NCBI GenBank assembly: GCA_021802125.1
Contig: JAKAAX010000001.1
Coordinates: 173,652 to 237,651, forward strand
DNA: 64,000 bases
Reading direction: 5' to 3'
From: Thermoplasmata archaeon
Lineage (GTDB): Archaea; Thermoplasmatota; Thermoplasmata; Lutacidiplasmatales; UBA184
Under the pieces are notes generated by a model. The model saw nothing but the letters and a program-made list of their open reading frames with translations, was not told where the DNA came from and did no database searches. Shown here one piece after another: positions 23,272 to 34,518 of this stretch. Every line of letters starts with the position of its first letter. The stretch's first letter is position 1. The position numbers were made by a program, and so were the translations under genes.

Positions 23272-23544
23272 CCCTGGAATGAGGGGTCGGCGGACAAGAA
23301 GGTGGTGCGGCGAGGTGACCGCTTCGGGGGGAGCGCTTGGAGGGAGAGTGCGGTGCCCACCGAGCGGGTCGTCGCTCCCTCCCCGCCTCTCCGCTCCACA
23401 CCCTCCCCTACCCTCCTGCTCGCGTTTCCCCTACGTGGAGGAGGCGGATCCTAGTCGTTCCGCGGCCCCGTGGCCGAGGCGTCCTATCCATTTAGTACTC
23501 GAAAGAACGAGGCCTCATATGCCACGAGACACCTATCGACCTCA

Positions 23545-25227
23545 ATGGCAGTGGGCCCGGAGGTCTACGCCCCTGCTGAGCATCTCCTGATCGCCGTGGA
23601 CCGGACGCTCGGGATCCTGGACCCTCTGCACGGGGTCGAGAGGCCCGCTTCGCTCGTGCGCCAGACGCTCATGGAAGTGATGGCCGAGGTGTCGAGCACC
23701 CCGCGCATATTCATCACGCTCCTCGCCCACCCCGAGGTCGCTCCCCCCGCGGGCGAGCGGCGCGACAAGGCCGTGCACGCGATGCAGGGCCTGATGGACG
23801 ACATGAACCAGGTCACGAACTGGTTGAACGTGTTCGTGGCGAGCCTGGCCACCACCTCCCGGGTCCGGAGCGTTCGTTGCGATGTTCCGTACCTTATGGT
23901 CAAGCGGCTCCGGGACCGGATCGCCGAGCTGTACCTTCTGTTGCACCCCGGGAACCTTCCCGCCGAGGGGCCCGGCGATCCCCGCCAGTATGGTGTCCCG
24001 CCTCCACCTCGGCCGCCCGGGCCCCCGCGCGCCGGCTTTGGCGTTGTCCCTAACGGCGTTCCCCCTCCGGGCGTCGCTCCGCGACCTCTTCCTCCACCTC
24101 CACCTCCGCCCTCGCCTTCCACGCCTCCACTCTATCCTCCCGCGCCCCTCGCATCGCCCCCGCGCGCACAGACCCCGGCTCCAGCTCCGGGGATGCCCCC
24201 GGCGCGGGAGCCGCTTCCCGGGCGGCCCCCGGTCGGGGGAGCGGACCCCGGCCCTCGCCCATACGCGCCGCCGGCCCCGACGGCCGCGCCCAACCCTCCG
24301 TCCCAGGCTCCTCGCCCGTCCCCTCCGACCTCCGCCCCACCCAATCACCTCCCCGAGGGAGTGACCCTCTACGTTCCCGTGGCCATCCAGCGACAGCTCT
24401 TCCCGTCGGCCCGTGACCCGCCGCCGGGCAGTCCGTCGGTCGCTCCTGGTCCCCCACCTTCCCCCGCCCCAGCGGCACCGGTCCGTGCGCCACCCATCGC
24501 TGCGCAGGCCCCTCCGCCCGTTGGACCGCGACCAACGCCTGCGGGGCCACCTCCGGTCACGGGAGCCATGACGCCCCCCCCGGCAAGGGACCCACCGGTC
24601 GCCAACCTCCCGACTGCCGGGACCCCCGTTGTCTCCACACCAGCCCCCCCGCCACCCGGACCTCAGACGGTTGTCGGAGAGGCTGCTCCCTCTGCACCAG
24701 AGGCTGCTTCCCCGCCACCGACCGCTGCAGCTCCTGGTCCCTCGCCCAGCGCTCCGGCGGAGGCGAAGCCCCCGGCAGCCCCGCCTCCGGGGTCGGGCGC
24801 CCAAGCGGCCTCCGGCCCGGCCGAGGTGAGGGCTCCTCCGCGGGCGGCGGGGCCCACCCCAGCGCCCAAGCCCTCAAGCGGCGGCAAGGTCCGGCGCCGA
24901 GCGAGCGCCTCGAAGACGGGCCAGGACACCGGTGGAGCTGCATCGAAAGGCCGCGTCCCGGCGGCGTCCTCACCCCCGACCGCTGCGCCGCCCCCGCGGA
25001 GCCAGGGCCCGGGCAAGGGGCAAGCCCAGGGAGCGGAGAGCCGAGCCTCTCCCTCCCCCTCTTCGTCTTCCTCTTCCTCTCCCACTCCCGCTCCCTCGGC
25101 CCCGTCGGGAGGAGGCTCGGAGAGCGCCCCGGTCAAGAAGGTCCAAGCCCGCAAGAAGAGCGGAGCGAAGGAGCCCAAGCCGTCCAAATCGGCACCCGCC
25201 GAAGCCGACGGCGCGAACGGACCTTGA
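23545..25227 (+). CDS. Hypothetical protein: helical N-terminal domain plus ~420-aa Pro/Ala-rich low-complexity region
   Basis: Long ORF filling the gap between recognisable genes; first ~140 aa have normal composition. Start may instead be 23470. Confidence 0.6.
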   Translation: MAVGPEVYAPAEHLLIAVDRTLGILDPLHGVERPASLVRQTLMEVMAEVSSTPRIFITLLAHPEVAPPAGERRDKAVHAMQGLMDDMNQVTNWLNVFVASLATTSRVRSVRCDVPYLMVKRLRDRIAELYLLLHPGNLPAEGPGDPRQYGVPPPPRPPGPPRAGFGVVPNGVPPPGVAPRPLPPPPPPPSPSTPPLYPPAPLASPPRAQTPAPAPGMPPAREPLPGRPPVGGADPGPRPYAPPAPTAAPNPPSQAPRPSPPTSAPPNHLPEGVTLYVPVAIQRQLFPSARDPPPGSPSVAPGPPPSPAPAAPVRAPPIAAQAPPPVGPRPTPAGPPPVTGAMTPPPARDPPVANLPTAGTPVVSTPAPPPPGPQTVVGEAAPSAPEAASPPPTAAAPGPSPSAPAEAKPPAAPPPGSGAQAASGPAEVRAPPRAAGPTPAPKPSSGGKVRRRASASKTGQDTGGAASKGRVPAASSPPTAAPPPRSQGPGKGQAQGAESRASPSPSSSSSSSPTPAPSAPSGGGSESAPVKKVQARKKSGAKEPKPSKSAPAEADGANGP

Positions 25228-25339
25228 GCTCCCGGACCGCCTCCGCCAGGGTGGGAGCGGCCTGTTGGCCCCTCGCGCTACCGGTGGACCGTTGAAGAGA
25301 GGTTAAGTGCCGGCCTCTCCTGTACCGCCCCCGGGCCCC

Positions 25340-26317
25340 ATGTTCTCGAACCGGGAAGAAGGGCTCGCTCGGGTCTGTGAGCTCCTCCAGAGGGCGGGGT
25401 TCTACCTCTTCGACGTCCACCACGTGCGGCCCACGCCCTTCGACCTGATCGCCCGCCGGGACTCCACGCTGCTCCTGCTGAAGGTGCTGAAGAACGCGGA
25501 CGCGCTCGGCCCGGAGGACGCCGCCGGGCTCCGCCTCGTGGCGGAAGCGATGGGGGCGGTGGCGCTGGTCGTCGGCGGGACCTCGGGGCCCCACGAACTG
25601 GAGACCGGGATCATCTACTCCCGGCACGGCGTGGTCATCGTCTCCCTCCCGACGCTCACGGAATATCTCACCAAAGGCATCCCGCCGCTCCTGGTCTCGG
25701 GCCCGGGGGGGAAGTTCGCCCGGATCGACGGGCCGCGGCTTCGCCGGGTACGGGAGGAACGCGGGCTCTCCCTGGCGGCCGTGGCCGATGCGGCGGGGGT
25801 TTCCCGCCGCACGATCCAGCTCTACGAGGAGGGCACCGGTGCGGACCTGACCGTCCTCGACCGACTGGAGCGCTTCCTGGCCGTGCAGCTCGCGATCGCG
25901 CTGGACCCGTTCGCCGAAGGGCTCGTCGGAGCGTACCGCTCACAGCCGGAGGAGGACCGCGCTCCGCCCCGGGTGCGGGGCCCTCTCCCTCCCGCCGTGG
26001 TCGAAGAGCTCAACGAACGCGGGTGGGACCTGATCATCACCCTGCGCACGCCCTTCGACCTCCTCGCCCGCGAGGAAGCGCGACGCGAGGAACGGGTGCT
26101 CATCGGGGTCGGAGACCTTCAGAGCGCCGAGCGGCGCTCCCGCCTCCTGTTCCAAGTGGCGCGCGTCGCCGAGGGGCAGAGCCTGTTCGTGGTCCCGGAG
26201 CGACGGTCGAAGACGAACGTCGATGGCGTGCCGCTCGTGAGCTACCAGGAGCTCCGCCGGCATGCGGGGCCCGAGGAGCTTCGCGAGCTCCTGCGGGAGC
26301 GCCGGAAGCGACCGTGA
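25340..26317 (+). CDS. Archaeal HTH transcriptional regulator (COG1395-like: two nuclease-like folds flanking a Cro/CI HTH)
   Basis: FDLIARR...LLLKVLKNAD, LETGIIYSRHG, LRRVREERGLSL...GVSRRTIQLYEEG, RTPFD. TTAAG about 35 nt upstream of this ATG. Confidence 0.85.
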   Translation: MFSNREEGLARVCELLQRAGFYLFDVHHVRPTPFDLIARRDSTLLLLKVLKNADALGPEDAAGLRLVAEAMGAVALVVGGTSGPHELETGIIYSRHGVVIVSLPTLTEYLTKGIPPLLVSGPGGKFARIDGPRLRRVREERGLSLAAVADAAGVSRRTIQLYEEGTGADLTVLDRLERFLAVQLAIALDPFAEGLVGAYRSQPEEDRAPPRVRGPLPPAVVEELNERGWDLIITLRTPFDLLAREEARREERVLIGVGDLQSAERRSRLLFQVARVAEGQSLFVVPERRSKTNVDGVPLVSYQELRRHAGPEELRELLRERRKRP

Positions 26318-27054
26318 GGTCGGCCCAGGCGGAGGCCCCGCAGCCGCTGCTGCTGCTCGGGGTCGTCCGCGGTCCGGTGGCCGAGGGGAGCCGGGTCGTG
26401 GACGCGCTCGGAGCTTTCCGCCCCGACCTTCTCGCCATCGGGCTCTCCCCGGAGGAGGTGCGGGCGCTCCAGTTGCATTTCTCCGACCCGTACTCCGAGC
26501 CCTGGGTCCCTCTCGCCTCGGCAGAGCTCGCTTACGCCCGGGGCCTCGCCCGCTTCGGCCCCGTCCGCGTGCCTTCCCCCGCGTTCCTCGCGACGCTCGG
26601 CTGGGCCGGGGAGCACGGGGTCGAAGTGCAGGGGATCGAGCCCCCCGACGACACGTACAGCGAGCTCTTCCTCGAGCACGTCGGATACTTCGACCTCCTG
26701 CGGAGGACGCTCGCGGACAGGAAGCTCCAGAACGCTCCGCCCGAGGCCGAGGACCCCGAGGCGTTCGCGGTCCGCTGGGACGCGCGGACCCACCCGGGCC
26801 GGGGCTCGCGAAGGCTGCTGGAGGCCCGGGGCCGGATGACCCGGGAGGCGTTGCTGAAGCTCTGCAAGTCCGGCGGAAGCTCCGGCGACAGCGCATCGCT
26901 CAAGAACCGGGTCGCCTTGGTGGTCGACGTGGAGCGCTTCGACCCTCTCCTCCATGAGCTTCGAGAGGCCCGCTGGAGCGCGCTCCAAGAGCCTCCCCGC
27001 CTCTCCGCTCCCCCGTCGAACGCGAAGGGAAGGACCCCCTCGAGCTCCGCATGA
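26314..27054 (+). CDS. Conserved-looking hypothetical protein (possibly TraB-like fold)
   Basis: GTGA overlap with the upstream gene and ATGA overlap with ppx; LLGVVRG...FRPDLLAIGLSPEE, FGPVRVPSPAF. Confidence 0.65.
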   Translation: MRSAQAEAPQPLLLLGVVRGPVAEGSRVVDALGAFRPDLLAIGLSPEEVRALQLHFSDPYSEPWVPLASAELAYARGLARFGPVRVPSPAFLATLGWAGEHGVEVQGIEPPDDTYSELFLEHVGYFDLLRRTLADRKLQNAPPEAEDPEAFAVRWDARTHPGRGSRRLLEARGRMTREALLKLCKSGGSSGDSASLKNRVALVVDVERFDPLLHELREARWSALQEPPRLSAPPSNAKGRTPSSSA

Positions 27055-28742
27055 GCGCCTCCACAAGGTCGGTCACCGTGACCCAGCACACGGAGCGGCC
27101 TCCGCTCCCGAGTCCCCCCGGGCGCGGCACGCTCGTGAACCGCCTCTTGGAGGGCACCGCCGGCTTCGAGCTCTACGATCTGAGCTCGACGCAAGGGCGG
27201 GTGGAGGGCGCGGGGTCGTCCGGGTCGGGCACCCGGGAGCGGCCGCATCGACCGTTCGCGGTCATCGACCTGGGGTCGAACACCGCGCGTCTCGTGATCT
27301 ACCGGAGCGCGCCGGTGGGACCGCCCTGGAGCGTGTTCGAGAGCAAGGAGGACCCCCGGCTCATGGACGGCGTGCAGAAGGACGGGCGGCTCACGGAGCT
27401 CGCCCGCCGCCAGGGCGTGTCCACCCTGCTCCGGTTCCGGCGTCTGCTGGAAGTGCACGGGGTGCGCGACATCCGGGCCGTGGCCACGAGCGCGGTGCGC
27501 GACGCGCCGAACCGCGCCTCGTTCGCGAGCGAGGTCCAGCGTCGGTGCGGGTTCCGGCTCCGGGTGCTCTCGGCGGCCGACGAAGCGCGGTACGGCTACC
27601 TCGGCGTTGCGAGCTCCCTGCCGCTCCAGAACGACCTGCTCCTCGACCTGGGGGGTGGGTCGCTCCAGCTCATGGCCGTCCGGGAGGGCCGGCTCCGGGA
27701 GAGCCTCTCGATGCCGATGGGCGCCCTCCGACTCCACCGCCGGTTCCTCGAGCACGACCCGCCGAAGCGCAAGGAGCTCGAAGCGCTCGAGGAGCACGTC
27801 CAGAAGGGGCTGAAGCCCCTGGACATGCTTGAGGCCCCCGACGACGAGCGCACGATCGGGGTCGGGGGCACCACGCGCAGCCTCGCCCACGTCATGGAGG
27901 CGATCCGCAGCTACCCGCTCCCCCGCGTCCACGGGTACGAGATGCGCACGCGCGACCTCGAACGGCTCTACGAGATCCTCTCGGAGAGCTCGGTCCCGGT
28001 TCGCCGCGAGATCCCCGGGCTCTCGGCCGGCCGCGCGGACCTCGTCGTCGCGGGGCTCGCCGTCGTCCTGGGGGTGCTCCACCGCCGCGAGGCCGAGACG
28101 ATGATCGTCTCCGGCTGCGGCATCCGCGAGGGCATCGCACAGGAGACGCTCGGCCGCCACCTCCCCTCGAACGCGGAGGAGATGGCCCGCGGGAGCGCTC
28201 TGGCCGCGCTCTGGTCCTCCGGCCTGGACCCTTCGCACTCCCGCCGGGTGCGGGAAGTGGCGCTGGAGCTCTTCGACCTCACGGAGCGGAAGCATCGCTG
28301 GGGGGAGGAGGAGCGCCTGGCGCTCGAGATCGCCGCCCTCCTCCACGACATCGGCACGAGCTTCAGCTACCCCGGCCACGCGCAGCACTCGGCCTACTTC
28401 CTGAGGAGCCGGCCGCTCTACGGGCTCACCCACCGCGGCTTCTTGCTCGCCTCCCTCGCGGCGGGGATGCACGAGGGGGAGGACCTCCCGGGGGGCACTG
28501 GAAAGCGATATCCCTCTGTCCTCAAGGAGGACGACGTCAGGGTGGCGCGCACCTTGGGAGCGATGCTGGCGATGGCGGAGGCGGTAGGCGACCTGCGTCC
28601 GCGTCCCCACTTCCGGCGCCGGGGGGACCGCCTGGACGTCCGGGTCCCTGGGGGCGTCGCACCGAACCAGCGGCTCTTCGACCGGGCCTGCCGGTGGTTG
28701 GATCGAACCGTGGAGGTGAAGGTCCGTGCCCGCGCCGCGTGA
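27051..28742 (+). CDS. ppx: Ppx/GppA exopolyphosphatase with HD-like C-terminal domain
   Basis: AVIDLGSNTARL, VATSAVRDAPN, EARYGYLG, DLGGGSLQL, GVGGTTR, GRADL, GIREG, LLHDIG. Exact start uncertain. Confidence 0.92.
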   Translation: MSASTRSVTVTQHTERPPLPSPPGRGTLVNRLLEGTAGFELYDLSSTQGRVEGAGSSGSGTRERPHRPFAVIDLGSNTARLVIYRSAPVGPPWSVFESKEDPRLMDGVQKDGRLTELARRQGVSTLLRFRRLLEVHGVRDIRAVATSAVRDAPNRASFASEVQRRCGFRLRVLSAADEARYGYLGVASSLPLQNDLLLDLGGGSLQLMAVREGRLRESLSMPMGALRLHRRFLEHDPPKRKELEALEEHVQKGLKPLDMLEAPDDERTIGVGGTTRSLAHVMEAIRSYPLPRVHGYEMRTRDLERLYEILSESSVPVRREIPGLSAGRADLVVAGLAVVLGVLHRREAETMIVSGCGIREGIAQETLGRHLPSNAEEMARGSALAALWSSGLDPSHSRRVREVALELFDLTERKHRWGEEERLALEIAALLHDIGTSFSYPGHAQHSAYFLRSRPLYGLTHRGFLLASLAAGMHEGEDLPGGTGKRYPSVLKEDDVRVARTLGAMLAMAEAVGDLRPRPHFRRRGDRLDVRVPGGVAPNQRLFDRACRWLDRTVEVKVRARAA

Positions 28743-29469
28743 TCCGGTCCCGACCCCCGCCCGCCCCGTGCCGTCTCCCGGGGGGCTCCGGTCGTCGCAC
28801 TACCCTGGGCGCCTGATCGTCTTCGAAGGGCTGGACGGCAGCGGCAAGTCGACGCAGGCCCACCTGCTCCTCAAGTGGCTGTCCTCCCGCGGGTACCGCG
28901 CGTTCTTCACGGAGTGGAACTCCTCGGACCTGGTCTCCTCCATCATCCGGCGGGGCAAGAAGAAGAACCTCCTGACTCCCACGACCTTCTCGCTCCTCCA
29001 CGCGACGGACTTCGCGGACCGGTTCGAGCGTCACATCCTCCCTCCCCTCCGGGCGGGGTACGTCGTCATCTGCGACCGCTACGTCTACACCGCCTACGCG
29101 CGGGACGCCGCGCGCGGATGCGACCCGGACTGGGTCCGGAACCTCTACGCCTTCGCCGTCCCCCCGGACAAGACCTTCTACTTCCGGGTCCCGGTGGAGA
29201 CCGCCCACAAGAGGAAGGAGGCCTCCCGCCTGAGGATCAAGTACTACGAGGCGGGCATGGACATGAACCTCTCCCACGATCTGACGGAGAGCTACCTCCG
29301 CTTCCAGGGACTGCTGAAGCGCCAGTACGACGTCCTCGCCAGGACCGAGGGGTTCCAGATCATCGAGGCCGAGCAGGACATCGAGGCCCTGCAGCGCGAG
29401 GTCCGCAGCGCGGTCCGCCCGCTGCTCGGAGGATTCCCGAAGGAGGAGGTGCTGGTCCATGGCACCTAG
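28726..29469 (+). CDS. Thymidylate-kinase-like P-loop kinase 1 (candidate polyphosphate kinase catalytic subunit)
   Basis: LIVFEGLDGSGKSTQ, FTEWNSS, HATDFADR, CDRYVYTAYARD, YYEAGMD. Confidence 0.85.
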   Translation: MPAPRDPVPTPARPVPSPGGLRSSHYPGRLIVFEGLDGSGKSTQAHLLLKWLSSRGYRAFFTEWNSSDLVSSIIRRGKKKNLLTPTTFSLLHATDFADRFERHILPPLRAGYVVICDRYVYTAYARDAARGCDPDWVRNLYAFAVPPDKTFYFRVPVETAHKRKEASRLRIKYYEAGMDMNLSHDLTESYLRFQGLLKRQYDVLARTEGFQIIEAEQDIEALQREVRSAVRPLLGGFPKEEVLVHGT

Positions 29470-30265
29470 GAAGGAGGAGACCCCCTCCGGGGCGAAGAAG
29501 CGCGACGGACGCCTGTTCGCCTGGCACCGGCGCGAGTCGCGGAACAAGGTGGAGAAGCTGGGGTTCAACAACTACGGGACCCGCCTCCCGGGGATCGCAC
29601 CGGAGTCGCTCCGTGGGCACCTCATCGTCATCGAAGGGGCGGACGGCTCGGGGCGCACGACGGAGTGCGCGATGCTCAAGGAATACCTCGAGGTGCAGGG
29701 GCACGCGGTCCTGGAGACCGGACTGCGCCGGTCGAACCTGGTGAGCGAGCAGATCGACCAGGCGAAGCAGGGGCACGTGCTGGGAGCGACCACGATGGCG
29801 CTCTTCTACGCGGTGGACTTCGCCGACCAGCTCGAGAACAAGATCGTGCCCGCGCTCGCGGCGGGCAGCATCGTGCTCTCCGACCGGTACATCTTCACCC
29901 TCATGGCGCGGGCCGTGGTCCGAGGAGCGTCGCGGCAGTGGGCCCAGCACCTCTACGGGTTCGCCATCCGCCCCGACATGACGATCCTCCTCGAGACCCG
30001 CCCCGAGATCCTGCTCCACCGGGCCTTCGGCAGGTACGGGTCGCTCGACTACTGGGAGTCCGGGATGGACCTGGGGATCTCGCGGGACCGCTTCGAGAGC
30101 TTCTTCCGGTACCAGTCGCTGCTGAAGACGGAGTTCGACTGGATGACGAAGACCTACGGGTTCGTGAAGGTGAACGCGAACCGTACCCCGATGGAGGTCC
30201 ACCGCGACGTCCGCTCCTCGGTCCAGCGGCTGCTCGAAGGGGCACGGCTGGAGACCTTCCGCTGA
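29459..30265 (+). CDS. Thymidylate-kinase-like protein 2 with variant P-loop (candidate partner subunit)
   Basis: LIVIEGADGSGRTT (Lys replaced by Arg), DFADQLE, SDRYIFTLMAR, YWESGMD. Confidence 0.85.
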   Translation: MAPRKEETPSGAKKRDGRLFAWHRRESRNKVEKLGFNNYGTRLPGIAPESLRGHLIVIEGADGSGRTTECAMLKEYLEVQGHAVLETGLRRSNLVSEQIDQAKQGHVLGATTMALFYAVDFADQLENKIVPALAAGSIVLSDRYIFTLMARAVVRGASRQWAQHLYGFAIRPDMTILLETRPEILLHRAFGRYGSLDYWESGMDLGISRDRFESFFRYQSLLKTEFDWMTKTYGFVKVNANRTPMEVHRDVRSSVQRLLEGARLETFR

Positions 30266-30279
30266 GCGGGGATCGAGGC

Positions 30280-31209
30280 ATGGCCCACGCGGCGAGGAGG
30301 GCCGCTCTCGAGGTGAGGAGGCGGAAGGCGGGTCGTAGCGCGACCATCTCCCTCCGGGGCTTCCTTCGCCGGGCCCAGGTCCGGTCGCTCCATCTTCGCC
30401 GCTTGCTGACCCTCGTGGCGGGGGCCACGCGACCACCCCCCGGGGTGGTCCACGAGCTGCATCGCGAGCTGCGCCGGGCGCGCATCGATGTCCGGGTCCT
30501 CCGGCGGAGCCTGCCGAAAGGGGAGCGGGCCCGGCTCCGCAGCCTGGAGGAAGGCCTGGACCGGCTCTCGGAGCTCGCCGGGGAGGCCCGGGACTCGGAC
30601 GTCCTGCTGGCCTCGCTGGCCCGCCTGACGAAGGGCGCGCCCCCCGAGGTCCGGCGCGAAGCCCGCTCGCTCGGGCTCCGGCTCTCCCGGGAAGCCACGG
30701 TCCGACACCGGGACCTGCGGGCGGAGGCGCGCAAGAGTCTCCGCCGGGCCTCCGAGCGGCTCCCTCCCCTGGAGCGTCGCAGGGCTACGGGCGTTCAGGC
30801 GGCGCACCGCTTCCAGCGCGTGGTGACGGAGGAGCTCGGAAGGGCCCATGAGGACCTGGTCCGCTCGAGACGGCGGGCGGCAAGGCGGCCCTCGGTCCGA
30901 CGGCTCCACCGTCTTCGGATCTCCCTGCGCCGTCTCCGCCACCTTCGCACGTCCATCGCTCAGGTGCCCGAGCGGGCCGACCTCGACACCGGATGGCAGC
31001 GTCTCCAGAGAGACCTGGGGGTTCACCACGACCTGGCGGTCCTGGAGGAGCTCCTCCGTTCCTCCCCCCGCTCCTCCGGTCGAACGCGGCTCCGCAAGCT
31101 CCTACGCGAGCAGATGGACGAGCGCGTGGCCAGGGCCCGGCACCATCTGGAGCAACAGGAGGTCCCCAGTCCCGCCGCGACCGGACGGCGGCCTTCCCGG
31201 GCGCTCTAG
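30280..31209 (+). CDS. CHAD domain protein (polyphosphate-binding)
   Basis: VHELHRELRRAR, GEARDSDV, LHRLRISLRRLR, LQRDLGVHHDL; very Arg-rich. GAGG before the ATG at 30280. Confidence 0.85.
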   Translation: MAHAARRAALEVRRRKAGRSATISLRGFLRRAQVRSLHLRRLLTLVAGATRPPPGVVHELHRELRRARIDVRVLRRSLPKGERARLRSLEEGLDRLSELAGEARDSDVLLASLARLTKGAPPEVRREARSLGLRLSREATVRHRDLRAEARKSLRRASERLPPLERRRATGVQAAHRFQRVVTEELGRAHEDLVRSRRRAARRPSVRRLHRLRISLRRLRHLRTSIAQVPERADLDTGWQRLQRDLGVHHDLAVLEELLRSSPRSSGRTRLRKLLREQMDERVARARHHLEQQEVPSPAATGRRPSRAL

Positions 31210-31643
31210 CGCCGACGACGAGCGCCGCCGGTGCCCCGGTGGCTCCGCGGCTCTTCCCCGGGCGGACGGTCGTCGAGACCGATCGCGTTGCCCGACGGGT
31301 CCCAGACGGTCCCGCCATGCTCGTCTTCCCGCGTGACTCGCACGCCCTGGAGCTCCAGGAAGCTCGCCGCCTTCGCGAAGTCCTGGACGCGCAGGCGGAG
31401 CGGGGTCTCCAGGCCCTGGGGGCCGAGACCCAGGGGCGTGAAGTCCTCCTGCTCGAAGAGCACGATCTCCCCCCCACCCGTGGAGATCTTCACCCGCTGG
31501 CAGCACTCCGCGTGAGAGTCGTCAGAGACACGGAACCCCAACAGGTCGCGGTAGAAGGTCAGGGCCTGGCCCAGGTCGCGGACGCGCAGGACGATTTGGC
31601 CCATGTCCAGGACCAGAGGCTCGCTCGACTCCCGCGTTTGCAT
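31206..31643 (-). CDS. VOC/glyoxalase-family protein
   Basis: IVLRVRDLGQALTFYRDLLGF...WDPSGNAIGL. Confidence 0.8.
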   Translation of the reverse strand: MQTRESSEPLVLDMGQIVLRVRDLGQALTFYRDLLGFRVSDDSHAECCQRVKISTGGGEIVLFEQEDFTPLGLGPQGLETPLRLRVQDFAKAASFLELQGVRVTREDEHGGTVWDPSGNAIGLDDRPPGEEPRSHRGTGGARRRR

Positions 31644-31665
31644 GTGCGTGCCCGTAGGACCCTCC

Positions 31666-33318
31666 CTATTCTTGACCCCTGCGGCCCGGAGCGCGCGCTC
31701 CGAACCATCCCCGGTCGACAGGAGCGTCGAGCTCCTCCTCGCCGTCCGCGGCGCGGGAAGCGTCGGGATGCGAGCGCCGATCTCGGCTACCCGACCGACC
31801 CGGCTCCCGAGGTTCCTTGCCCCCGAGAACCCTCCCACCCCGGTTGCGGGATCGGCGTGACCAGAGATAGGCCACCACGAGGGCTGCAAGGACTACGCCA
31901 AGCCCCAAGTCGACCAGGAGCGCCGTCGAGAGCCCGTGCGAAGGGGGGGAAGTGGGCCCTTTCGTCGCGTTTGTTCCGGTCGTCGTGTTCCCCCCAGGGG
32001 GGTTCCCTCCACCGACCGGAGGCGGGGGCGGGGACCGTACCTCGAGAGGGACGGTCGCGAAGGTCGCGGCGCCGCGACCGTCGGTGATCTGGGCCGCGAC
32101 CGTGAAGTTCCCCACGACCGCGGGGACGCAGGTGAGCGAGGTCACGTTCGCTGGAGCGCATCCACCGGGGAGCCCGGAGTAGAGGACCGTGAGGCCCCCC
32201 GCGCCTCCCGTCGCCACGAGAGAGAAGAGGACCGCGTTCCCCTGGGTGACAGGGGAGGGGCTCACGGAGAAGGCGAGTATCCTGGGGAGCGGCTCCACCG
32301 CGAGAAGGGCGGTCGCGCTCACGTTGGCTCCGGCCTGGTCCTGCAGGTACACGGTCACCGTGTAGTTCCCGGAGGCGTTCGGGTCGCAGACGAGGGGGGA
32401 ACCGGTACCCTGCCCGCAGCCGGGAGGGAGGCCGGAGAACCACTGATGGAAGGGGGGACTCCCGCCCGAGACCGAGGCGTTGAGCGTCGTGTTCTCTCCG
32501 AGGTCGATCACCGAGGGGCGGATCGTCAGCGTGGGGAGCGTAGGGGGGCCCAACACCGTCAGCACCTCCGTGTGGAGCACGGACGCTCCCACGGCGTCCG
32601 TCGCGTTCAGGCTGACGTAGTACGTCCCGACCGTTGTGTACGTGTGCAGCGCGGAGATCCCGGTGGCGTTGGTCCCATCGCCGAGGGCCCAACGGAAGGT
32701 GTAGGGCGGGGTCCCCTCGTAGGGGACGGCGGTCGCCAGCTCCGGGATCCCCGCGTCGGTCGGGTCGGAGCGGAAGAACAGCCCGGCGGTGAAGGGAAGG
32801 TTCACCAGGACCTTGTAGGAAGCGTTCACCGAGGCGGCGGCGCTGTCGTTCGCCCACACGGTGACGGTCCCGTTCCCCGCGCTGGGGAAGGACCAGTTGA
32901 CCCAGGGACCAAAGGAGGCCCCGCTGCCCTGGTCGGAGCGCCACGAGAGGTTGTAGGGAGCCACGCCTCCCAGGACGACCGCGTGGAAGGTGACCTCGCG
33001 CGCCTCGTCCGTGACGTTGGTCGACGCAGAGATCGAGACGGAGAGCGTGGACCGCACATTCTCCGTACCGGGCTTCCTCGCCGTGTCGGCGGGGGGGAGG
33101 TGGGTGAGGGACGACGGGGGAAGGGCTTCGTGAGGTGGGGAGGACGCCTGTCCCTGGTAGAGAGGTCCTCCGACCGGAAGGAGAGGTCCAGCAAGGACCG
33201 GCAGCACGGGGAGGGCGAGCAGGAGAAGCGAGACGAGAAGCGCGAGCGGGCCGTTGTGGCGGAGTTGGGACCTGCTCCGCGATGCGGGGGGAGAGGCGGC
33301 CCTCGCGCCGTCGCTCAC
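31666..33318 (-). CDS. Membrane-anchored PKD-repeat surface glycoprotein
   Basis: Signal peptide, GTPPYTFRWALGDG PKD motif, two C-x9-C repeats, many NxS/T sequons, C-terminal TM helix and charged tail. Confidence 0.8.
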   Translation of the reverse strand: MSDGARAASPPASRSRSQLRHNGPLALLVSLLLLALPVLPVLAGPLLPVGGPLYQGQASSPPHEALPPSSLTHLPPADTARKPGTENVRSTLSVSISASTNVTDEAREVTFHAVVLGGVAPYNLSWRSDQGSGASFGPWVNWSFPSAGNGTVTVWANDSAAASVNASYKVLVNLPFTAGLFFRSDPTDAGIPELATAVPYEGTPPYTFRWALGDGTNATGISALHTYTTVGTYYVSLNATDAVGASVLHTEVLTVLGPPTLPTLTIRPSVIDLGENTTLNASVSGGSPPFHQWFSGLPPGCGQGTGSPLVCDPNASGNYTVTVYLQDQAGANVSATALLAVEPLPRILAFSVSPSPVTQGNAVLFSLVATGGAGGLTVLYSGLPGGCAPANVTSLTCVPAVVGNFTVAAQITDGRGAATFATVPLEVRSPPPPPVGGGNPPGGNTTTGTNATKGPTSPPSHGLSTALLVDLGLGVVLAALVVAYLWSRRSRNRGGRVLGGKEPREPGRSGSRDRRSHPDASRAADGEEELDAPVDRGWFGARAPGRRGQE

Positions 33319-33330
33319 AGCCCGCCTCGC

Positions 33331-33927
33331 CTACCGGTGGGAGACTCGGGCGCCCTTCCCCCTTCCGGTAGGACGGCGCCTCGCCTTGCGAGGTTTCGGT
33401 GCGCGAAGGGGGCGTTTTCCTCGGACACGCCGAAGTTGCCCACGGGTGAGCGCCCAAAGAAGCCTGCCTCCCCCCGGACGGAGGGGCCCGGGGAAGTCCA
33501 GGGCCACCGCGCCCCCCTTCGAGAACTTCAGCACCGAGAGCCCTTCGCCCGACAGGCAGTACCCCACGAACCGAGAGAGGAGGGGCTCGTGCCCGACGAG
33601 GACCAGGTCGCCCCGGCCCTTCGCCGTGCGCGCGCGAAGGAACAGGGCCTCCAGGGAGGCGTCCGGTTCGAGCTCGGCCCAGCCCACTGCCCTGTCCGCC
33701 GGGGTCCAGACGCTGCCCAGGATCGAGGCCGTCTCCCGTGCGCGCGCGAGCGGGCTCGTCGCGCAGGACCCCTGCCGCTCCAGGAGCTCGGCGAGGCCCC
33801 GCGCCGCGTCGACGAACTCCTTGCGGCCGTTCGTCTTCAGCGGGCGCTCCCGGTCGTCGGGCCAGCTGGCGAAGTCACGGGACCGCGCGGGCGCGTGGCG
33901 GAGGAGCACCCAGCGCCGGCCGACCAT
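33331..33927 (-). CDS. sixA: SixA-like histidine phosphatase
   Basis: LLRHAPA, DDRERPL, TSPLARARETA, LVGHEP, KGG. Confidence 0.85.
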   Translation of the reverse strand: MVGRRWVLLRHAPARSRDFASWPDDRERPLKTNGRKEFVDAARGLAELLERQGSCATSPLARARETASILGSVWTPADRAVGWAELEPDASLEALFLRARTAKGRGDLVLVGHEPLLSRFVGYCLSGEGLSVLKFSKGGAVALDFPGPLRPGGGRLLWALTRGQLRRVRGKRPLRAPKPRKARRRPTGRGKGARVSHR

Positions 33928-33972: not shown

Positions 33973-34518
33973 TCAGCTGTCGTCCTCTCGCAGGACGCGG
34001 GTGAGGATGTCCCGCGCCTTCGACTGGAGGTCGGAGAGCGGGCCCTCGTTCACGATCATGTAGTCCGCCAGCGCGAGCGCGTTCCCGATGCCCCACTTGA
34101 GCTCGCGGCGGTCGCGTTCGTAGAACGCCTCCATCGAGAGGCTGTCGTCACCGCGGCCGCGGTGGGTGAGCCGCTCGAAGCGGGTGTCGGGGGAGGCGTA
34201 GACCCCGAGGACGGTGAGGTCGCCGAAGTTGTGGCGGAAGACCGTGACCTCGGCGTCGGAACGGCAACCGTCGATGAGCGTCTTGGTCTCGGTGATCTTC
34301 GGGACGATCTTCTTCGCCCAAACCGAGGGGCCCTGCCGGTCCCGTTCCTCGTTCGCGACGCGCGCGTTGTTCTTGTCGTTGATGGGGAGGTTCCGCCGCC
34401 GGACCTCGTCGCGGACCAGGTCCCCCATCTTCATGACGTGGAACCCCAGCATCTTCGCGACGCCGACGATCTCGTCCTTCCCGGATCCCGGGAGACCCAC
34501 CGTCACCACGAGCTTCAT
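33973..34518 (-). CDS. Archaeal P-loop kinase, UPF0200/dephospho-CoA-kinase-like
   Basis: VGLPGSGK, MGDLVR, IDGCRSDAE, RFERLTHRGRGDD, RDRRELKWGIG, ADYMIVNEG. Confidence 0.85.
   Translation of the reverse strand: MKLVVTVGLPGSGKDEIVGVAKMLGFHVMKMGDLVRDEVRRRNLPINDKNNARVANEERDRQGPSVWAKKIVPKITETKTLIDGCRSDAEVTVFRHNFGDLTVLGVYASPDTRFERLTHRGRGDDSLSMEAFYERDRRELKWGIGNALALADYMIVNEGPLSDLQSKARDILTRVLREDDS

Follow-up and report, generated by a model that had tools for sequence, protein, structure and literature searches.

Gene content and organisation of the locus

The window analysed here is a 64,000-nucleotide stretch of the Thermoplasmata archaeon assembly GCA_021802125.1; it has a G+C content of about 70% and sits on contig C54 of a 2.63-Mb genome (G000) that is 89.9% complete. 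The subject of this study is a run of four genes on its + strand (27051-31209), encoding a ppx exopolyphosphatase, two thymidylate kinase (TMK)-like proteins, termed TMK1 and TMK2, and a CHAD-domain protein. As read from the DNA, the four genes overlap or abut one another and lie exactly where a first-pass annotation, made from the letters of the sequence, had placed them; that annotation had read them as a polyphosphate (polyP) operon whose TMK-like pair probably forms a heteromeric polyP kinase, with a two-subunit polyP kinase of family 3 (PPK3) from Sulfolobus acidocaldarius as the precedent.

The ppx gene (27051-28742) encodes a Ppx/GppA-family exopolyphosphatase with a C-terminal domain III/HD region, supported by the Pfam models Ppx-GppA (4e-57), Ppx-GppA_III (2.3e-13) and HD (8.8e-6) and by the exopolyphosphatase model TIGR03706 (5.5e-82, under that model's cut-off). 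Its start is uncertain: the longest reading begins at 27051, where the ATG overlaps the stop of the upstream open reading frame (ORF) in an ATGA, and the Pfam domain begins only at residue 82. The end of ppx overlaps TMK1 (28726-29469) by 17 nt, and the TMK1 stop overlaps TMK2 (29459-30265) by 11 nt, with GGAGG-type stretches directly 5' of both TMK starts. A 14-nt gap separates the TMK2 stop from the ATG at 30280, which is likely the start of the CHAD gene (30280-31209), although the ORF containing it opens at 29665, inside TMK2, and ends at 31209. The resulting 309-aa protein belongs to a polyP-granule-associated family and matches Pfam CHAD at 1.7e-15 over residues 37-260. Both TMK-like proteins match the Pfam family Thymidylate_kin (PF02223; 2.7e-27 for TMK1 and 5.5e-21 for TMK2). 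At such E-values, chance is no concern for the identities of these genes.

Relationship of the TMK-like pair to PPK3

A published precedent exists, as the first-pass annotation had indicated, in Sulfolobus acidocaldarius, where Saci_2019 and Saci_2020 were described as a heteromeric PPK3 (SaPPK3; Hofmann et al., J Biol Chem 2026; PMC12995831; preprint 10.1101/2024.08.28.610084). According to this source, the operon has the order sixA-ppx-saci_2019-saci_2020-CHAD. Saci_2019, the catalytic subunit (cPPK3), makes polyP, has no dTMP kinase activity and forms no dTDP, while Saci_2020, the regulatory subunit (rPPK3), is inactive alone, with trace ADP formation only, and activates Saci_2019, best at a ratio of 1:1. 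The true Tmk is Saci_0893, whose gene is located outside this operon. The SaPPK3 reaction is reversible with a strong preference for ATP formation from ADP and polyP, ADP being the preferred acceptor and activity with GDP being reduced (PMC12995831).

Judging from their sequences, the four genes of the window are likely to constitute a polyP operon with a PPK3 kinase, in which TMK1 would be catalytic and TMK2 a non-catalytic activating partner; it is very probable that the pair corresponds to the two PPK3 subunits, TMK1 to the catalytic and TMK2 to the regulatory one. The support computed here consists of homology, gene order, conservation of the pair and the presence of a separate canonical tmk, and we infer the activity, the direction of the reaction, the heteromer and the inactivity and role of TMK2. 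TMK1 would move the terminal phosphate reversibly between ATP/ADP and polyP and, if it behaves like SaPPK3, would mainly form ATP from ADP and polyP at low energy charge, making polyP only at a high ATP/ADP ratio. TMK2, as its paralogous non-catalytic partner, would bind TMK1 and raise its activity via oligomerisation, whilst Ppx is expected to hydrolyse polyP and the CHAD protein to bind it.

TMK1 carries the Walker A motif GLDGSGKST together with DRY, TEWNSS, RGKKK, HATDFADR and YYEAGMD. The best solved relative of both TMK1 and TMK2 is STK_15430/st1543 of Sulfurisphaera (Sulfolobus) tokodaii (PDB 2plr, 4nzy, 4rzx, 5h70), which is called a cPPK3 homologue in PMC12995831. In phmmer searches, TMK1 matched 2plr/5h70 with an E-value of 1.6e-64 against 4e-16 for the best canonical Tmk, 38 other Tmk chains matching at 4e-16 or weaker, and TMK2 matched 2plr at 3.5e-38 against 3.5e-14 for canonical Tmk. 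TMK1 thus qualifies as an orthologue of the Saci_2019/STK_15430 type, distinct from canonical Tmk, and TMK2 is of the regulatory type, in line with the two-subunit reading. The proteins TMK1 and st1543 share the P-loop, TEWNSS, HATDF(A/S)DR and DRYxYTAYARD, and differ in the lid motif, which is KPQEAGADI in st1543 and KYYEAGMDM in TMK1. TMK1 and TMK2 share 38% identity.

Both proteins are named dTMP kinase in public records, a probable mis-annotation that the first-pass annotation had suspected, and st1543, solved without a partner, was likewise deposited and titled as a dTMP kinase. These names and the family models are the grounds for a rival notion, in which both proteins would be redundant dTMP kinases of the ordinary kind, lying beside ppx by coincidence: both match Thymidylate_kin, and with TIGR00041, the NCBIfam dTMP-kinase equivalog, TMK1 scores 107.8 bits against a cut-off of 83.25, while TMK2, with 82.8, falls just below. 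These models, however, do not discriminate between PPK3 and Tmk: with TIGR00041 the real Tmk of the genome reaches 111.5 bits, near the value of TMK1, and the widespread 'dTMP kinase' names are attributable to the inability of this model to tell cPPK3 from Tmk. That real Tmk, encoded on another contig (G000:C28:55579-56112; PF02223 1.4e-29), is a separate canonical protein with 33% identity to TMK1 (over 125 residues) and 25% to TMK2, so that the pair are not the only tmk genes of the genome. It shares with the window proteins the fold, the Pfam family and the P-loop and DRY of the ATP site. At the EP motif of the dTMP site, named in the preprint (10.1101/2024.08.28.610084), it reads QEPS where TMK1 reads TEWNS and TMK2 TGLRR; it is the only one of the genome's three Tmk-family proteins to hold the motif, and TMK1 and TMK2 combine a dTMPK fold with its absence. 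The DFAD and (Y/W)E(A/S)GMD motifs, conversely, are present in both TMK1 and TMK2, as are the two P-loops quoted by the first-pass annotation, and are absent from the canonical protein. Considering also that the tested orthologue Saci_2019 formed no dTDP (PMC12995831), that loci of many phyla place the pair beside ppx, SixA or CHAD, and that PPK3 separates from canonical Tmk in the tree described below, coincidental dTMP kinases are highly improbable.

The distribution of the pair was assessed in two ways. A scan of species genomes with an alignment of catalytic-type (c-type) proteins was evaluated on the best 80 of at least 574 confirmed stretches, all of them closer relatives than Sulfolobales; the scan pattern also matches ordinary Tmk, and the 574 stretches are not a count of PPK3 genomes. 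The archaeal loci belong to Thermoplasmata, Nitrososphaerales and Nitrosopumilales, and the bacterial ones to Acidobacteriota, Nitrospira, Verrucomicrobiota, Planctomycetes, Chloroflexota, Bacteroidota and others. The Walker A Lys of the c-type was kept in all 80 loci, and in 78 of them the c-type was directly followed by a regulatory-type (r-type) ORF of the same orientation. The exceptions were L057, cut by a contig end, and L013 (3500-5172 in the metagenome-assembled genome of a Thermoproteota archaeon), which had a convergent CHAD-like ORF downstream of the c-type and no r-type; a further Tmk-like match was observed on another contig of the latter genome (G002:C147). Genes for ppx and SixA-like proteins were frequent neighbours of the pair, a SixA-like gene standing beside it in many of the 80 loci.

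A sample of a second archaeal phylum (401 genomes, centred on a Nitrososphaeraceae locus) yielded a c-type at E <= 1e-30 in 29 genomes, with an adjacent r-type at every one of the 29 loci. Fourteen of these (L100-L113) form a separate group, here called Sulfolobales-like because of L106, whose c-type aligns with PDB 2plr over its full length (467 bits, 213/213 residues) and whose neighbourhood runs sixA-ppx-c-r-CHAD, the order described for S. acidocaldarius, the CHAD match being weak; this c-type is 50% identical to TMK1. Within the window's own phylum, a c-type at E <= 1e-50 was found in 36 of 401 genomes (with G000), including 8 of the 9 other genomes of the window's family in that sample. 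The best-named homologues are labelled 'Thermoplasmata archaeon', 'Candidatus Thermoplasmatota archaeon' and 'Euryarchaeota archaeon', and of the 8,000 candidates scored for each query, over 7,000 clusters at 90% identity gave a match at E <= 1e-5.

A quick-method tree of 79 rows, with three long canonical Tmk rows as outgroup, separated the PPK3 rows from the three canonical proteins (support 99). The c clade comprised 34 c-types and five odd rows (97); TMK1 fell among the c-types of Thermoplasmata (99) and TMK2 among the r-types of that class (93). The lineage groups of the c sub-tree recur in the r sub-tree, as would fit a pair that is inherited together. Odd PPK3-like paralogues (P0332, P0353, P0367) with a Walker Lys and NKY or EQY in place of DRY stand at the base of the c clade. 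The 'NKY' proteins P0332 and P0353 were considered as a Sulfolobales r-type and ruled out, the named relatives of P0332 being Margulisbacteria and Obscuribacterales.

Physical association of c- and r-type proteins is suggested by natural fusions. P0241 (460 aa; Alicyclobacillaceae/Alicyclobacillus sp.) joins a c-type N-terminal half, 50% identical to TMK1, to an r-type C-terminal half, 44% identical to TMK2, and is one of three chains with two Tmk-like domains (P0241, P0277, P0321; 454-471 aa). Three others (P0244, P0255, P0276; 650-696 aa) combine a c-type, a degenerate r-type and a Ppx-domain-III/HD region. These c-r and c-r-Ppx forms provide a Rosetta-stone argument for the association of c and r; PMC12995831 mentions one possible fusion only. 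In P0339 (1610 aa), an inorganic pyrophosphatase domain is joined to a Tmk-like domain, and P0365 was also listed among the fused PPK3 forms.

The heteromer modelling proposed by the first-pass annotation was performed on TMK1 residues 24-247 and TMK2 residues 46-268, with alignments of 29 rows each, and gave a score of 0.56 (runs 0.57, 0.54 and 0.56) compared with 0.01 for the best of three controls. The runs agreed in at least 91% of contacts, with partner pLDDT of at least 82. In calibration, 58 of 80 solved complexes reached the score mark, as did 2 of 110 mismatched pairs, but scores up to 0.60 included only 7 of the 80 solved complexes and both of the passing mismatches. The score, which may be explained by likeness to solved Tmk homodimers, was set aside: the model lends weak support to a TMK1/TMK2 heteromer and was not counted as evidence.

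The regulatory-type partner and competing interpretations

TMK2 carries GADGSGRTT, with the Walker A Lys changed to Arg (R66), followed by SDRYIFT, YAVDFADQ and YWESGMD. It has an N-terminal tail of about 50 aa, of which residues 10-34 were modelled at low confidence. Its AF2 model (pLDDT 77.4) found as best PDB folds eight st1543 chains (TMt 0.87-0.90), followed by ordinary Tmks; the 50 best matches listed included no PPK2 chain. Besides overlapping the c-type gene and grouping with r-types in the tree, TMK2 is the closer of the two window proteins to the Sulfolobales-like r-types, which score 108-136 bits against it and 66-103 bits against TMK1; it is therefore the adjacent r-type paralogue of TMK1. 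The net charge is +6 in TMK1 and +1 in TMK2, and the c-type was the more positive member in 29 of 33 pairs, an excess that fits the basic polyP cleft described for the c subunit only (PMC12995831).

Across the r-types of the 78 scan loci, which span many phyla, the Walker position was Arg and the D-R of the DRX motif was kept without exception. The residues D142-R143-Y144, R151, R155, lid R188, E200 and D204 were kept in 74 to 78 of the 78 loci, and R66, D142, R143 and Y144 of TMK2 are invariant in 29 relatives. Over 75 loci, mean pairwise identity was 0.51 for r-types and 0.60 for c-types, and 38 core columns of the r-type were at least 95% conserved, including R151, R155, R188, E200 and D204. 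The r-types of 15 Nitrososphaeria-type loci followed the same pattern, with an Arg P-loop and the D-R kept. The Sulfolobales-like r-types are different: the DRX Arg is lost in all 14 (L100-L113), which read ADGY, YWESGMD has decayed, and the Walker residue is Arg in ten and Lys in four (L100, L101, L103, L110), the three Lys-bearing proteins that were included in the tree forming one subclade (99). This pattern suggests that the constraint on the P-loop was relaxed following DRX loss. Judging from distribution, and not from a rooted reconstruction, the Arg P-loop seems to be an ancient mark of the r lineage, and the loss of DRX seems to have come later, as a decay within one lineage.

P-loop NTPases in which the Walker A Lys is mutated to Arg commonly still bind nucleotide but lose turnover. 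A variant of the PPK3 interpretation would accordingly have TMK2 still binding ATP/ADP, as an energy-charge sensor or a slow second active site; it would account for a Walker position that is always Arg and never a random residue, for the retained catalytic-site residues and conserved core, and for the confinement of DRX Arg loss to r-types whose Walker residue is no longer fixed. Extended to the family, the r subunit of most PPK3s might be a constrained nucleotide-binding module that senses ATP/ADP or turns over slowly and sets the direction of exchange, the DRX-less Sulfolobus subunit being a degenerate special case. Saci_2020, however, although of the DRX-less type, gave only trace ADP formation and no PPK activity (PMC12995831), and conservation of the r-type may reflect interface and fold constraints alone. 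A nucleotide-binding TMK2 is rather unlikely, and the family-wide version appears about as doubtful.

Several observations weigh against the reading of the locus as a PPK3 operon with a non-catalytic TMK2. The arginine of the DRX motif was reported to be replaced in rPPK3s and given as the reason for their inactivity (PMC12995831), whereas TMK2 retains it, so that inactivity is inferred from the Walker A Lys-to-Arg change alone. The pseudo-kinase partner put forward by the first-pass annotation thus agrees with the altered P-loop of TMK2 but not with its intact DRX arginine. This mismatch is taken as a limit of the published generalisation and not as an exclusion of TMK2 from PPK3. Moreover, when the tree is rooted on the long canonical outgroup, where long branches meet, the r-types form a grade and not a clade. 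The arrangement of CHAD and SixA is also unlike that of Sulfolobus, and the genome contains a TIGR03709-type PPK2, although most PPK3 genomes are reported to have neither PPK1 nor PPK2 (PMC12995831).

In SaPPK3 as in the window, two adjacent dTMPK-fold paralogues stand directly after ppx and before CHAD, the c-type has an intact Walker A Lys and DRX, the EP motif is missing and a canonical Tmk is encoded separately; the contiguous ppx-c-r-CHAD order of the window corresponds to the context typical of PPK3, with ppx and, commonly, CHAD and SixA. The two systems differ in the host, which is here a member of Thermoplasmata and not a crenarchaeon, and in the r-type, which here combines an intact DRX arginine with Arg in place of the Walker A lysine. 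The ppx of the window is a long form of 563 aa with domain III/HD, compared with about 420 aa at the S. tokodaii-type locus. The SixA-like histidine phosphatase gene (33331-33927, - strand; His_Phos_1 1.1e-4; TIGR00249 sixA 3.5e-12, below cut-off) lies 2 kb downstream on the opposite strand; it is outside the operon and associated with it at most.

The absence of ppk1 and ppk2 from the window, recorded by the first-pass annotation, was confirmed, and genome-wide no PPK1 (PF02503) match was obtained in the 89.9%-complete assembly. The genome's only PPK2 match is encoded on contig C33 (C33:7078-7740; L004 1444-2247, - strand), a one-domain protein of 267 aa scoring 384.8 bits with TIGR03709, and PPK3 is therefore not the only polyP-linked kinase of the organism. 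All four genomes of the window's genus, G000 among them, carry PPK2. Among the 41 genomes of the family, G000 included, the c/r pair was present in 39, PPK2 in 19 and PPK1 in none; omission of the unpublished genome G821 gave 38/40, 19/40 and 0/40, respectively.

This co-occurrence leaves room for a division of labour in which PPK2 would handle ADP/ATP exchange while the TMK pair would be a polyP-linked kinase with another main acceptor (another NDP or NMP), and identity between the c-types of Thermoplasmata and the characterised group is only about 50%. However, the c-type hallmark residues (TEWNSS, K78, R99, R126, R130, R163, R168) are conserved from the Sulfolobales-like through the Thermoplasmata to the bacterial loci, and SaPPK3 itself preferred ADP, with reduced GDP activity (PMC12995831), which makes a different main acceptor improbable. 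As for PPK2 itself, neither TMK1 nor TMK2 matched PF03976 at E <= 0.01. The two-domain class II enzymes of that other family (e.g. PA3455) resemble PPK3 in pairing an active module with an inactive paralogous module for oligomerisation and in an equilibrium towards polyP-dependent nucleotide phosphorylation (PMC12995831); their modules are fused, whereas the window pair is encoded by two genes.

Genomic surroundings, habitat and significance

Upstream of ppx, an ORF at 26320-27054 (+), within the longer ORF 26023-27054, is conserved and its stop overlaps the ppx start. It matched no Pfam family, a high-scoring protein atlas lead to the TraB/GumN family being the only one obtained. It is present in 40 of the 41 family genomes but adjoins the PPK3 operon in some genera only, and was therefore excluded from the system. 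Further upstream lie an HTH_3 regulator-like protein (25307-26317, +; 4.6e-11) and a 585-aa ORF (23470-25227, +) of extreme Pro/Ala/Ser richness over most of its length and with no Pfam family; it is a candidate low-complexity protein, overlapped by long antisense ORFs of the kind that a G+C content of 74% leads one to expect. Downstream, a glyoxalase/bleomycin-resistance-fold protein (31206-31889, -) is convergent with CHAD and overlaps its stop. The following gene (31666-33318, -) encodes a 550-aa protein with PKD domains (1.7e-19, three stretches) and, by eye, many N-x-S/T sequons and a hydrophobic C-terminal stretch, features suggestive of a surface protein of archaea. At 33973-34518 (-) lies the gene of a small AAA_17 P-loop kinase-like protein (5.2e-15).

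The stretch is nearly complete in three sequencing runs of one study, labelled mine drainage metagenome and possibly its source, and a run of a second study contains 0.81 of its sampled words. Contigs of this second run cover 25200-29844 (43 differing letters) and 29816-32000 (14), and a contig of a third study, with 162 differing letters, covers 25200-29193. A metatranscriptome run from the study of the probable source sample contained six short contigs, three of them on ppx (27845-28033), across the TMK2/CHAD junction (30193-30394, 202 nt) and on CHAD (30466-30669). None lay on TMK1 or on most of TMK2, and the uncovered parts prove nothing; contigs from an RNA library do not prove transcription, and they give a weak hint that the operon is expressed. 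In acid-mine-drainage settings, polyP has been discussed as a metal-resistance and energy reserve (PMC6864096).

The PPK3 system is already in print, and the operon described here adds to it the Thermoplasmata, a lineage not named in the main text of the paper. That text names Nitrososphaeraceae, Sulfolobaceae and 'a few bacteria', yet calls the clade predominantly bacterial (PMC12995831). Thermoplasmata are mentioned neither in the main text nor in the preprint, and 'Euryarchaeo' does not occur in the main text; the supplements may list members or the Arg P-loop. Among the papers searched, none joined 'Thermoplasmat' and 'PPK3'. The novelty is modest and lies in the lineage, in the co-occurrence with PPK2 and in an inactivation signature of the r subunit that fails here and in most of the family.

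TMK1, TMK2 and thousands of their close relatives are labelled dTMP kinase. Owing to these labels, and to an equivalog model that cPPK3 passes, the capacity for polyP kinase activity is probably under-called in Thermoplasmata and in many bacterial phyla. In view of the family counts given above, PPK3 is the sole recognisable polyP kinase in about half of the sampled genomes of the window's family, which, by the run labels, belong to acid-mine-drainage organisms. The family-wide combination of an Arg P-loop with an intact DRY in the r subunits is contrary to what the published description (PMC12995831) would lead one to expect, and it opens a mutational route to how the regulatory subunit works.

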